From a virus, in the UHGV virus genome UHGV-0132790: DNA of 21,724 nucleotides. The stretch is one strand, 5' to 3'. The notes beneath the pieces were generated by a model. It had not been told where the DNA came from, made no database searches, and saw nothing but the letters and a program-made list of their open reading frames with translations. Position numbers and translations under genes: made by a program. Below, one piece after another: positions 8,013 to 11,551 of this stretch. The stretch's first letter is position 1, and every line of letters begins with the position of its first letter.

Positions 8013-8729
<717 letters not shown>

Positions 8730-8826: not shown

Positions 8827-9027
8827 ATGGAACAACGCATAACCCTGAAAGATTATGCAATACGCTTTGGGCAAACCAAGACGGCTAAAGATCTCGGCGT
8901 ATATCAAAGCGCGATTAACAAGGCCATTCATGCAGGCCGAAAGATTTTTTTAACTATAAACGCTGATGGAAGCGTTTATGCGGAAGAAATAAAGCCCTTC
9001 CCAAGTAACAAAAAAACAACTGCATAA
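8827..9027 (+). CDS. cro: Cro repressor (lambda type)
   Basis: 66-aa [66 protein letters not shown] matches lambda Cro apart from a couple of residues. Confidence 0.95.
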
Positions 9028-9079: not shown

Positions 9080-9165
9080 AGCCCCAAGATATCTGACCAA
9101 CTAAGGCCATATGCGTTTCCACGCATACCTTTCAACTAGCTATTCACTATTGGAAATCTTAAGAA

Positions 9166-9462
9166 ATGGAACAAACAAGTTACAGCAAACTGTCACAGCG
9201 CGATATCGATCGCGCTGAAACGGATTTACTTATCAACCTGTCAGCTCTGACGCAAAGGGGACTGGCGAAGATGATTGGCTGTCATGAATCGAAGGTCAGT
9301 CGTACCGACTGGCGATACATCGCGGCGATTTTATGCGCGTTTCAGATGGCATCTGATATCAGTCCGATCAGCCGGGCTTTCCAGCATGCCATTAACGTTC
9401 ATGCAAATAAAAAACGTCCGGTTGGGGCCGGACGTTCTGAGCAAATCCTGATGAATATCTGA
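9166..9462 (+). CDS. cII: CII-like transcriptional activator (diverged from lambda cII)
   Basis: 98-aa protein in the cII position. C-terminal NKKRPVGAGRSEQILMNI resembles lambda cII NKKRPAATERSEQIQMEF; the N-terminal part is different. Confidence 0.65.
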   Translation: MEQTSYSKLSQRDIDRAETDLLINLSALTQRGLAKMIGCHESKVSRTDWRYIAAILCAFQMASDISPISRAFQHAINVHANKKRPVGAGRSEQILMNI

Positions 9463-9526
9463 TATTCAGGCAGGGCATGGAGCAATACACGGGAATAATT
9501 CTGCCACATCTGGAAGAATTTCGCCA

Positions 9527-9685
9527 GCAACAACACCAACCGCAGCAGCCTGAAGCCGATTGGGTTAACCCGGAGATACCGGGACCGTCTGTGAAGATGT
9601 GCAGTCACACCAATGTGCAGTCACACCAACCGCAGCAGCCTGAAGCCGATTGGGTTAACCCGGGAGATACCGGGACCGTCTGCGG
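9527..9685. repeat. Two direct copies of a roughly 60-bp element plus a tandem 16-bp duplication; candidate iterons or origin of replication
   Basis: CAACCGCAGCAGCCTGAAGCCGATTGGGTTAACCCGG(G)AGATACCGGGACCGTCTG occurs at about 9529-9591 and 9620-9682, with TGTGCAGTCACACCAA twice in tandem at about 9596-9627. Each copy contains the 10-bp palindrome GGGTTAACCC. A third, interrupted copy lies inside the initiator gene at 10381-10474. Confidence 0.5.
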
Positions 9686-9715
9686 TATGGAGTAAATCTT
9701 GTATGCGAGGGGACT

Positions 9716-10804
9716 ATGCGTAATTACGCAACAATTTCACCTCAGTTCTGGTTAGGCGAAACAGGGAGAAAACTAAGGAAGTCTGGTCCGGAATGTATGG
9801 TAGTGGCGTTGTATATGATGACCTCGCCTCATTCCAATATGCTGGGCCTTTATTACCTGCCTGTTTTGTACATTGCTCACGAAACCGGACTTGATCCTGA
9901 AGGGGCTTCTAAGGGGCTTCAAATGGCTTGCGAGGCTGGTTTTTGCAGCTATGACCATGATTCTGAGGTTGTATGGGTGCATGAAATGGCAGCATGGCAG
10001 GTTGGTGAATCGCTGAAACCTGGCGATAACCGTTGTGCTGGGGTAAGAAATGAATATTCCGTGTTGCTGGAAAATCCTTTTTTATCATCCTTTTATGATA
10101 GATATAAGGATGATTTCCACCTGGATGTCAGACGTGAATCATGTCGGAAAATTGAAGCCCCTTCAGAGCCTCTTTCAAGCCAAGAACAGGAACAGGAACA
10201 GGAACAAGAACAGGAAAGGGATAAAACCCTTCTGGTCCATGGCGAAAAAATCGCCACGGACCCGCAGGGGGATTTTTGTCCTGTTCTGACTGAACGTCCA
10301 GGACCAGCTGGCACGACACCGGAAGCAGATTCCGGGCGTTGTGTGCAGCAGGTGCTGATCGTCGAACCGGAGCAACAACGCCAACCGCAGCAGCCTGAAG
10401 CCGATTCCGCGATGAGCGGGAAGCCGATTGGGTTAACCCGGGCGATGCCGGGACCGTCTGCGGGACGAGTTGATTATCCTGACGTGTTCGAACGGGTCTG
10501 GCGTGAATATCCGCATCGGGCAGGGTCAAACCCGAAGAAATCCGCGTTCAATGCCTGGAGGGCCAGATTACGCGAAGGGGTGTCACCGGATGTCGTGCTG
10601 GATGGCGTGAGGCGTTACGCAAGATACCTGGAGGCTACCGGGAAAGCGGGAACTGAATTTGTTCAGCAGGCATCGACGTTTTTTGGCCCGAACAGGAATT
10701 TCGAAAATCCGTGGTCGCTGCCGAAGGCTGGCGCAGTCAGCCTGCGTTGCGTGAATCACATTTCTGAACCGGACACCGAAATTCCGCCGGGTTTCAGGGG
10801 GTAA
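9716..10804 (+). CDS. Phage replication initiation protein (O-equivalent, paired with a DnaC-type loader)
   Basis: 362-aa ORF directly upstream of the DnaC-like gene, occupying the lambda O position, with an internal copy of the upstream repeat. Contains an EQEQEQEQEQE tract. Family assignment is by position and general resemblance only. Confidence 0.7.
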   Translation: MRNYATISPQFWLGETGRKLRKSGPECMVVALYMMTSPHSNMLGLYYLPVLYIAHETGLDPEGASKGLQMACEAGFCSYDHDSEVVWVHEMAAWQVGESLKPGDNRCAGVRNEYSVLLENPFLSSFYDRYKDDFHLDVRRESCRKIEAPSEPLSSQEQEQEQEQEQERDKTLLVHGEKIATDPQGDFCPVLTERPGPAGTTPEADSGRCVQQVLIVEPEQQRQPQQPEADSAMSGKPIGLTRAMPGPSAGRVDYPDVFERVWREYPHRAGSNPKKSAFNAWRARLREGVSPDVVLDGVRRYARYLEATGKAGTEFVQQASTFFGPNRNFENPWSLPKAGAVSLRCVNHISEPDTEIPPGFRG

Positions 10805-10810
10805 TCAGCC

Positions 10811-11551
10811 ATGAAAAACATTTCGACAGGAGGGATTCTTGAACGGGTGCGCCGTCTGGCACCACCGCACGTGGCAGCACCGTTCCGGACGACCGACGAA
10901 TGGCGGGAATGGCAACTGGCTGAGGGCCGTAAGCGCAGCGAGGAAATTAACCGCCTGAATCATCAGGTGCGGGTTGAAAAAATCCTGAACCGTGCGGGCA
11001 TCCAGCCGCTTCACAGGAAGTGCTCATTCGGGAACTACCGGGTGCAGAACGACGGTCAGCGCCATGCTCTGAGCCAGGCGAAATCCATTGCCGATGAATT
11101 GATGACCGGGTGTACAAACTTCGTGTTCAGCGGGAATCCGGGAACCGGAAAAAATCATCTGGCGGCGGCTGTGGGTAATCGTCTGCTGAAGGCCGGTAAA
11201 TCCGTGATAGTGGTCACCGTGGCGGATGTGATGAGCGCGTTACATGCCAGCTATGACGACGGACTGTCAGGGGAAAAATTTTTGCGTGAACTGTGCGAAG
11301 TGGACCTCCTGGTTCTTGACGAAATTGGCATCCAGCGTGAGACGAAAAACGAGCAGGTGGTACTGCACCAGATTGTTGACCGCCGGACGGCATCACTGCG
11401 CAGTGTCGGGATGCTGACAAACCTGAATCATGCCGCAATGAGCACGCTTCTTGGTGAGAGGATTATGGACCGGATGACCATGAACGGTGGTCGTTGGGTG
11501 AATTTTAACTGGGAGAGCTGGCGGTCAAACGTTGGACGTCAGGGTATGTGA
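10811..11551 (+). CDS. DnaC-like helicase loader (AAA+ ATPase)
   Basis: 246-aa protein with Walker A GNPGTGKNHLAAA and Walker B LLVLDEIG. Strong full-length resemblance to E. coli DnaC (FSGKPGTGKNHLAAAI..., TGMLTNSN...LGERVMDRM...FNWDSYRS). Confidence 0.9.
   Translation: MKNISTGGILERVRRLAPPHVAAPFRTTDEWREWQLAEGRKRSEEINRLNHQVRVEKILNRAGIQPLHRKCSFGNYRVQNDGQRHALSQAKSIADELMTGCTNFVFSGNPGTGKNHLAAAVGNRLLKAGKSVIVVTVADVMSALHASYDDGLSGEKFLRELCEVDLLVLDEIGIQRETKNEQVVLHQIVDRRTASLRSVGMLTNLNHAAMSTLLGERIMDRMTMNGGRWVNFNWESWRSNVGRQGM

Follow-up and report, generated by a model that had tools for sequence, protein, structure and literature searches.

The initiator module and its left flank

The window (the whole 21,724-nt stretch of the viral genome UHGV-0132790 that was analysed) carries, beyond a cII-like gene, a gene for a 362-aa replication initiator of an 'Eru4'-type module (positions 9716-10804, plus strand), followed by a gene for a DnaC/IstB-like helicase loader (10811-11551, plus strand). 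The window shares 97.8% identity with Shigella phage 75/02 Stx over cII, the repeat array described below, the initiator gene and the first part of the DnaC-like gene; that phage represents the Eru4 type of Stx-phage replication region (Fagerlund et al. 2022, PMC8951638). In that scheme the region is classified by its proteins, the first of which is given as being of 'unknown function', and the text searched of that paper mentions neither repeats nor iterons. Carriers of the Eru4-type module are Stx1 phages of Shigella and E. coli and one prophage of E. coli O104:H4, and a scan of genome contigs returned a single locus.

The N-terminal domain of the initiator is type-specific, and the linker and C-terminal half are common to other initiator types. 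The linker is hypervariable and also occurs where the N-terminal domain of the initiator is unrelated. By sequence comparison, three initiator types have one linker and C-terminal half in common, each N-terminal domain being accompanied by its own two-cluster set of candidate iterons. The label 'Rac YdaU homologue' was considered for the third type and was discarded, as K-12 YdaU shares only the C-terminal tail with the initiator. No Pfam match was obtained for the window's initiator even at E = 10, and a single-sequence AlphaFold model of its N-terminal domain was unusable (mean pLDDT of 39).

The left part of the cII-initiator gap, which is free of repeats and lies outside the array, corresponds to a putative antisense RNA (9405-9490, minus strand) that overlaps the 3' end of cII and terminates at an intrinsic terminator (9438-9411), its 5' end at around 9490 being estimated by eye. 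It is oop-like in its location, in its terminator and in its fold (z = -4.05); what it shares with the lambda oop RNA and the AgvB anti-sRNA is good folding, antisense overlap with the 3' end of cII and an intrinsic terminator. In Rfam, the AgvB match scores 20.7 bits, well short of the gathering threshold of 56.

Repeat copies upstream of and within the initiator gene

A repeat search combined with blastn of the individual units identified two copies upstream of the initiator gene (A and B) and one inside it (C). Copy A (9526-9596, plus strand; blastn match 9526-9594) is a segment of initiator-linker DNA containing GAAGCCGATT, the perfect 10-bp palindrome GGGTTAACCC at 9562-9571 and a CCCGG-N6-CCGGG dyad, and it has neither the extra G nor the 23-nt segment found in other copies. 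Copy B (9616-9688, plus strand) is the last unit, the 3' part of which (CCCGGG, GTCTGCGG) matches the internal copy, with homology stopping at 9685/9686. Copies A and B are 98.3% identical over 60 nt and differ by one 1-nt indel (CCCGG-AG versus CCCGGGAG), in agreement with an earlier sequence-only reading of this DNA, in which two near-identical copies of about 60 bp, each with a perfect palindrome, had been placed in the cII-initiator gap. A tandem 16-bp duplication noted there was likewise recovered: ATGTGCAGTCACACCA is present twice at 9597-9628 on the plus strand (2.1 copies over 9597-9629, 100% identical), where it forms the unit-unit junction, and it is missing from one-copy variants. 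All elements described in that reading were found at the positions it gave.

Copy C (10371-10466, plus strand) lies in the disordered linker of the initiator, carries GGGTTAACCC at 10430-10439, and is 97-100% identical to copies A and B on both sides of a 23-nt segment, CCGCGATGAGCGGGAAGCCGATT (10407-10429, plus strand), which is missing from A and B of the window. This segment had been described as an insertion interrupting the third copy; the extra DNA is indeed present, but it is not specific to copy C, being polymorphic among relatives at upstream copies and at the internal copy alike. It occurs in all three upstream copies of the relative L007 and, as an in-frame stretch of 24 nt, in the initiators of L010, L011 and Tritos, and is absent from L008. 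The 10-bp direct repeat GAAGCCGATT lies on both sides of the segment, so that slippage could easily remove it.

Three perfect GGGTTAACCC sites (9562, 9652 and 10430) are present, and none was found elsewhere in the window; allowing at most one mismatch, four sites were observed (three of them perfect) against 0.38 expected, a number reached in none of 100 shuffles. The left half of the unit, encoding QPQQPEAD, is in one common frame in A, B and C, which bears out in part the proposal that the third copy lies in the same reading frame as the upstream ones; beyond the palindrome, on its right, the copies differ in frame. In copy C the palindrome and the CCCGG-N6-CCGGG dyad coincide with a lineage-specific -1/+1 double frameshift. 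Read in the frame of the upstream open reading frame (ORF), copy A encodes QQPEADWVNPEIPGPSV, and the same place in other initiators reads QQPEADRVVPENTGQSV or READWVVPENTGQPV; copy A thereby retains the ancestral reading frame. In the alignment of all copies the homology junctions are sharp, at 9525/9526 and 9685/9686, identity to copy C is 92-100% on the two sides of the 23-nt segment, and indels are shared. Copy C is, by this comparison, evidently the parental copy, and the upstream units descend from sequence coding for the linker.

Copy number, recombination and lineage distribution

The array grows and shrinks by whole units, with one, two or three upstream copies among relatives. Two copies represent the majority state in the window-type lineage; one copy was found in ten of the examined relatives (L005, L017, L030, L038, L078, L135, L137, L140, L141 and L145) and in at least seven complete genomes, and three copies in L009 and L007, the usual unit being 90 nt versus 113 nt in L007. 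At least two distinct crossover points were distinguished among the one-copy variants (L005 versus L141). Recombination between upstream and internal copies occasionally deletes the N-terminal domain of the initiator: in L006 and SW07163 a deletion joins an upstream copy to copy C, leaving an initiator pseudogene whose N-terminus is lost. The copies also undergo concerted evolution, L007 having GAT for GAA together with the 23-nt segment in all four copies, as opposed to GAA throughout in the window. The upstream units and copy C trade sequence, either by gene conversion or by unequal crossing-over.

Upstream copies and the GGGTTAACCC palindrome are restricted to the window-type lineage (81 of 5426 E. 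coli genomes, approximately 37 IMG/VR contigs and 13 metagenome contigs). Neither was detected in the sister lineage (469 genomes, approximately 70% amino-acid identity), whose initiator has a homologous N-terminal domain, or in replisome-organiser-type initiators. The possibility of a mobile or widespread element was dismissed, as the unit pattern GCCGATTGGGTTAACCCGG matches only contigs of the window-type lineage in IMG/VR. An RNA structure at the array was rejected as well, the fold of 9463-9730 being no better than that of shuffles (z = -0.54), and no Rfam match was obtained over the array.

Candidate iterons within the initiator gene

The sequence-only reading had interpreted the array as origin-like and its units as possible iterons, an interpretation which is not supported by sequence comparison. 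The units are 60-113 bp in length, with start-to-start distances of 90/91 and 778 bp, in place of the short clustered repeats of an iteron origin, and they are not in helical phase. The array and copy C have a GC content of 55-65%, the AT minimum of the region being located elsewhere. Neither do the units co-vary with the N-terminal domain: the internal copy also occurs in L008 and Tritos, whose initiators have an unrelated domain at the N-terminus and GTCACG iterons of their own, and upstream copies are missing from the sister lineage despite its homologous N-terminal domain.

A different repeat, the 10-mer AAGGGGCTTC, unlisted in the earlier reading, shows the features that the units lack. 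Two copies starting at 9900 and 9911, that is 11 bp apart, form a first candidate iteron pair (9900-9920, plus strand), presumed to be initiator-binding sites, and a second, inverted pair (10154-10174, minus strand) consists of a perfect copy at 10154-10163 and a degenerate one at 10165-10174, the latter matching at 8 of 10 positions in L007 and L009. Perfect copies number three in the window versus 0.02 expected (none of 100 shuffles reaches three), and in the fetched loci with a window-type N-terminal domain they are confined to these positions. Between the two pairs lies the AT-richest stretch (10060-10125; 31.7% GC at 10060-10119), a candidate unwinding region containing a small inverted repeat, and directly after the second pair follows an A-rich (GAACAG)n tandem repeat (10181-10222, plus strand), which varies in copy number among relatives and whose counterpart in replisome-organiser-type initiators is (ACAGATAAAGAT)n; the AT-skew is 0.5-0.69 over 10150-10270.

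AAGGGGCTTC is present in both lineages that have the window-type N-terminal domain, and its place is taken by GTCACG, in two clusters at equivalent positions, in initiators of the other N-terminal type. Among relatives (L042, L075 and L079) the copy number of AAGGGGCTTC changes in 11-bp steps. In the first cluster, all four of the four-fold-degenerate sites are identical between the two lineages, versus approximately 50% elsewhere in the domain, and the single spacer site varies. In the second cluster the orientation of the motif is opposite between the two lineages and the encoded peptides differ (EAPSEPL versus EGAFKGL). AAGGGGCTTC thus combines phased repeats above chance, an AT-/A-rich neighbour, and co-variation with DNA-level constraint, the three comparative hallmarks of an iteron origin, and the origin of the Eru4-type module is most likely formed by the AAGGGGCTTC repeats inside the initiator gene. 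The proposal that an origin lies within 9527-10474 would therefore stand as to its location, with the likely iterons being AAGGGGCTTC. A kinship of GAAGCCGATT with the inverted iteron GAAGCCCCTT (8 of 10 positions) was considered and rejected, the GAAGCCGATT motif being also present in initiators with GTCACG iterons. In the literature searched, no paper describing the origin of an Eru4-type module was found; oriJ of Rac is named there as an active origin, and its mapping was not found in it.

Explanations of the array

Taken together, the array is probably a tandem-amplified partial duplicate of initiator-linker DNA that has no required role, the origin most likely being the AAGGGGCTTC set. 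A linker-coding segment would have been partially duplicated, its duplicate being placed between the oop-like RNA region and the ribosome-binding site of the initiator and then amplified in tandem. The AAGGGGCTTC repeats would be bound by the initiator N-terminal domain, as at ori-lambda within gene O, while the C-terminal half would recruit the DnaC-like loader. A duplication scar derived from the initiator gene had been the other option in the sequence-only reading, and the sharp junctions, the presence of one, two or three copies, the concerted evolution, the natural deletion and the sister lineage without copies all speak for it. We infer that the array is dispensable for replication initiation and behaves as a neutral, unstable scar.

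The principal alternative is that the units represent a functional cis-acting element, either auxiliary origin sites or sites of a phage or host regulator bound by one protein, which could tune the firing of the origin or the expression of the initiator, for instance by looping out the cassette of N-terminal domain and iterons. Each copy contains a perfect palindrome that is restricted to the window-type lineage, GGGTTAACCC and the CCCGG-N6-CCGGG dyad resemble sites of dimeric DNA-binding proteins, and the specificity cassette, 9716-10370, lies exactly between the direct repeats. Furthermore, no window-type member without any upstream copy was found among the 81 E. coli genomes, IMG/VR and the 13 informative metagenome contigs (approximately 135 sequences), and this retention of at least one copy throughout the lineage counts against a scar; in so young a lineage (at least 95-98% identical), little weight can be placed on it. 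Diversity in the array is low, with 2 variable sites in 165 nt versus 7 in approximately 95 synonymous sites of the adjacent N-terminal domain, although singleton densities are alike and the flanks, unlike the array, have divergent homologues from which variation may be imported. Both variable sites, however, fall within the palindromic elements, one at 9568 in GGGTTAACCC and the other at 9662 in CCCGGG, copy number drifts from one to three and unit length between 90 and 113 nt, the palindromic motif has no further site in the window, the units are neither AT-rich nor helically phased, and the sister lineage, with its homologous initiator, has neither copies nor palindrome. A cis-acting role is on this evidence unlikely. 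Slightly less likely again is its more specific form, in which the palindromic units constitute a lineage-specific pair of sites bracketing the N-terminal domain and the candidate iterons and bridged by a phage or host protein or by the initiator itself; if true, the bridged pair would control origin firing or initiator expression, with unit copy number as a tunable dial.

Two further alternatives concern the 72-aa ORF at 9477-9695 (plus strand; phrog_2751, 'hypothetical protein'), which is annotated in all deposited relatives examined and which, as had been noted, is largely built from the repeats, its translation containing QPQQPEAD twice. The ORF begins 15 nt past the cII stop codon and ends 20 nt ahead of the initiator ATG, forms a PHROG family, and is open in one-, two- and three-unit variants, so that it could be a real small gene, either with a functional product or with its translation shielding the initiator from Rho-dependent polarity across the 254-nt gap. 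Its persistence is nevertheless explained by descent from coding sequence and by the 90-nt unit being a multiple of three. Neither its reading frame nor its protein is conserved: in L007 a TAG breaks the ORF after 41 codons, in L141 its 3' end is in another frame, and over the first 28 codons L007 differs from the window at five places, each of them non-synonymous. Its Shine-Dalgarno sequence is weak (AGG), there is no Pfam or NCBIfam match, and the peptide pattern matches nothing beyond the window-type lineage. The ORF is thus probably not a conserved protein-coding gene, a functional one being the most improbable of the options weighed here, and it would represent a by-product of the duplication scar. 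It is also highly improbable, if marginally less so, that the upstream copy is a recombination joint left by fusion of the initiator module to a lambda-type cII/oop module, with the first 16 codons of the ORF as a remnant of a displaced earlier initiator gene. In other phages that have the window's cII, homology runs no further than the stop codon of cII, the sister lineage is associated with YdaT-type regulators instead of cII, and the middle units hold states of the other lineages (no extra G, TCTGTG and TCACACCAAC), all of which speak for such a joint. The origin of the ORF start from an older initiator was nonetheless rejected: the back-translated IILPHLEEF pattern is found in IMG/VR in the window-type lineage only, no initiator or other gene starting like the ORF, and neither blastn of 9440-9530 among phages nor tblastn of the ORF returned a homologue outside it. 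The joint is moreover compatible with the duplication explanation and does not exclude it.

Comparison with known systems and implications

In ori-lambda within gene O, and in six-iteron origins of the lambda-type Stx phages (PMC7466680), the origin is located at the boundary of a DNA-binding N-terminal domain and a loader-recruiting C-terminal domain. Lambda-type origins consist of short phased repeats next to an AT-/A-rich tract that move with the N-terminal domain in module exchange (PMC7466680), a logic which AAGGGGCTTC fits and the 60-90-bp units do not. The likeness is a comparative one, and there are differences: the window initiator has no Pfam match linking it to lambda O, its partner is DnaC-like whereas that in lambda is lambda P, and the AAGGGGCTTC 10-mer forms two clusters approximately 245 bp apart, the second being inverted, versus four 19-bp dyads in one cluster in lambda. 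As a by-product of this analysis, the repeats at 9900-9920 and 10154-10174 predict, in a form open to testing, where the Eru4-type module has its origin.

The array itself, in our preferred explanation an ordinary, unstable duplication scar, resembles tandem or segmental, VNTR-like partial-gene duplications: it descends from a parental coding segment, its copy number is polymorphic by whole units, its copies are homogenised, and deletions occur between copies lying apart. It differs from them in that the duplicated segment comes from the linker of an essential replication gene of the phage and that the specificity domain of this gene lies between the copies, so that recombination between the copies inactivates replication, as in L006. 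Recombination of an upstream copy with copy C would accordingly be a natural source of replication-defective prophages. For annotation, caution is advised with phrog_2751, as the 'hypothetical protein' in deposited relatives probably corresponds to no gene. Finally, the number of upstream units varies among close relatives and is a potential typing marker.

Repeat units and their setting

The region studied is the early-right part of a lambdoid prophage or phage, with cI (8013-8726, minus strand), cro (8827-9027), cII (9166-9462), a 72-aa ORF (9477-9695), a 362-aa initiator gene (9716-10804), a DnaC/IstB-like loader gene (10811-11551) and a DUF1627 gene. Over 9100-10900, sequence identity is 97.5-98.5% with Shigella phages 75/02 Stx and POCJ13 and with Escherichia phages PhiR5_2 and phiSTEC1589-Stx1c, while a prophage of E. 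coli O104:H4 matches 9463-9900 at 100%; since the O104:H4 Stx2a phage is of type Eru1 (PMC8044961), the latter match belongs to another prophage. Under the scheme of Fagerlund et al. 2022 (PMC8951638), the replication region corresponds to ‘Eru4’, the first protein of which is entered as having unknown function, and term searches of that text turned up neither repeats nor iterons.

Two near-identical units of about 60 bp, copy A (9526-9594) and copy B (9616-9688), are located upstream of the initiator gene, while a related segment within that gene, copy C (10371-10466), contains 23 additional nt (10407-10429). Copies A and B are 98.3% identical over 60 nt, differing by one G (CCCGGAG versus CCCGGGAG), with a perfect 16-bp tandem duplication between them (9597-9629), and the palindrome GGGTTAACCC has three perfect occurrences and none elsewhere in the 21.7 kb (expectation with one mismatch allowed, 0.38). 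The repeat feature is thus real, and each of these elements had been accurately described in the sequence-only reading.

To the left of the array, the first 60-odd nt past cII are part of an oop/AgvB-like antisense RNA (9405-9490, minus strand) which overlaps the 3’ end of cII. This RNA has an intrinsic terminator (9438-9411) and two hairpins (folding z = -4.05), and matches Rfam AgvB weakly (20.7 bits, the gathering score being 56). Its putative promoter, placed by eye at approximately 9498-9526, would abut the left end of copy A.

Descent of the array from the initiator linker

Three initiator types have the sequence from residue ~170 to the C-terminus in common: the window type; a sister type, carried by 469 genomes of E. 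coli (chiefly O157:H7), with ~70% protein identity to the window type and linked to YdaT rather than cII; and a replisome-organiser type, whose N-terminal domain is unrelated (loci L008, L015, L086-L095 and phage Tritos). In Tritos (2280-2742) the shared C-terminal half is present, yet the annotated downstream gene encodes a 140-aa hypothetical protein and not a DnaC-like loader.

The linkers of these types differ by indels built around a repeated GAAGCCGATT (peptide EAD); an in-frame 24-nt segment (SAIQREAD) is found in the linkers of locus L011 and Tritos, and is missing from that of L008. The window-type linker carries 23 nt followed by an additional G, so that its frame shifts by -1 and then by +1 (SAMSGKPIGLTRAMPGPSA versus SAIQREADWVVPENTGQPV), which suggests that the linker tolerates nearly any sequence; within 10397-10457, ~30 nt are consequently in a different frame from the other types. 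Copy A, read in the frame of the 72-aa ORF (QQPEADWVNPEIPGPSV), retains the frame of the other initiator types (QQPEADRVVPENTGQSV), which indicates that the upstream units derive from linker coding DNA. Judging from sequence comparison, the initiator linker is the hypervariable parent sequence of the array. The extra 23 nt of copy C, previously read as an insertion, do exist, but represent a polymorphic segment between 10-bp direct repeats.

The array is carried by 81-82 of 5426 complete E. coli genomes, most commonly as two units. A single unit occurs in at least seven (e.g. G1/2, locus L005), and three units occur in TOE17 and in 23CRST047 (L007), those of the latter being 113 nt each and all including the 23-nt segment. 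IMG/VR and metagenome contigs display the same one-or-two-unit range; short-read assemblies may collapse repeats, though the one-unit state is also found in complete genomes. One-unit variants do not contain the 32-nt junction, and their crossover points differ between L005 and L141; they are thus independent deletions from a multi-unit ancestor. In SW071619 and SW07163 an upstream unit has recombined with copy C, with loss of the initiator N-terminal domain, leaving an annotated pseudogene. All four copies in L007 carry GAT for GAA and the extra segment, whereas all window copies carry GAA: array copies and copy C evolve in concert.

The 72-aa ORF (translation MEQYTGIILPHLEEFRQQQHQPQQPEADWVNPEIPGPSVKMCSHTNVQSHQPQQPEADWVNPGDTGTVCGME) is probably not a gene, and its translation is very improbable. 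It is open in one-, two- and three-unit variants because of the 90-nt unit length and its coding ancestry; in L007 it stops after 41 codons, and each of the five differences from the window within its first 28 codons alters the amino acid, and in L141 its 3’ end is in another frame. Its product matched no Pfam or NCBIfam family, and its peptide pattern was not found outside the window-type lineage. The ORF start (9474-9487, GCATGGAGCAATAC) and end (9683-9696, GTATGGAGTAAATC) are identical at 10 of 14 positions. Had the whole array been inserted, this could be a target-duplication-like trace of the event; by rough estimate, though, chance could yield such a match given how many alignments are possible.

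Role of the array

The repeats had been proposed to be either origin iterons or scars of initiator-gene duplication. The latter alternative is supported by the linker-coding descent, the one-, two- and three-unit variants and the concerted copies. The array is an ordinary kind of feature. The iteron proposal found no support: the units are long, 55-65% GC and out of helical phase, and do not track the DNA-binding domain. Copy C falls within the gene segment common to initiators with unrelated N-terminal domains and therefore does not follow DNA-binding specificity, while the upstream copies and GGGTTAACCC are restricted to the window-type lineage, being absent from the sister lineage despite its homologous N-terminal domain. 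Moreover, the two sites that vary in the array among 31 distinct two-unit sequences are both within palindromic elements. From these sequence properties, the units are unlikely to be iterons.

A cis-acting role is doubtful, even though every member of the lineage retains at least one unit, the units bear a perfect palindrome and a dyad, and variable sites are fewer in the array than at synonymous sites of the neighbouring domain. These observations carry limited weight because the lineage is young, singleton densities are alike, and diverged homologues can supply variation to the flanks but not to the array.

Candidate iterons inside the initiator gene

A separate 10-mer, AAGGGGCTTC, appears to be the better origin candidate within 9527-10474. 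Two perfect copies in direct orientation, spaced by 11 bp, are located at 9900 and 9911, and a third is on the opposite strand at 10154, with a degenerate copy 11 bp beyond; 0.02 perfect copies are expected in the window, and three were reached in 0 of 100 shuffles. Perfect copies are restricted to these positions in all fetched loci with this N-terminal domain. In the sister lineage there are 2 + 3 copies, every one of them direct, and copies are gained or lost among relatives in 11-bp steps (L042, L075, L079). The second cluster is oppositely oriented in the two lineages and encodes a different peptide in each (EAPSEPL versus EGAFKGL), which argues for conservation of the DNA motif and not of the protein. 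In the first cluster, all four four-fold-degenerate sites within the motif are identical between lineages (~50% across the domain), and the only spacer site varies.

The replisome-organiser type carries GTCACG repeats with 10-11-bp spacing in two clusters at positions equivalent to those of AAGGGGCTTC. These lie ~255 bp apart (L008, 1493-1530 and 1750-1800; Tritos gene positions 127-168 and 386-438), a layout mirroring that of the window. The tract 3’ of the candidate iterons is (ACAGATAAAGAT)n in this type (2-4 copies; L008 1790-1850, L086, L088), as against (GAACAG)n in the same position, in 6-nt steps, in the window (10181-10222) and sister types. The most AT-rich part of the region (10060-10119, 31.7% GC) lies between the two AAGGGGCTTC clusters, and an A-rich tract comes after the second. 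As with ori-lambda, the candidate origin would be within the initiator gene at a domain boundary, travelling with the N-terminal domain. This testable candidate-origin prediction for the Eru4-type module is a useful by-product of the array analysis.

Initiator C-terminal tail

Two proteins have C-terminal tails that match the initiator tail (10730-10801, residues ~338-362, …CVNHISEPDTEIPPGFRG): E. coli DnaT (E = 0.008-0.03; NCBIfam NF002770 positions 156-179; PDB 2ru8, 6aep, 9zbt) and YdaU from the K-12 Rac prophage (…VSLPDSAIPPGFRG). A DnaC-family ATPase gene is located directly 3’ of both the window initiator gene (10811-11551) and ydaU (YdaV), and DnaT is likewise encoded directly upstream of such an ATPase in the dnaT-dnaC operon. 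Taken with the tail matches, this gene order suggests that the tail may be a peptide which docks the loader.
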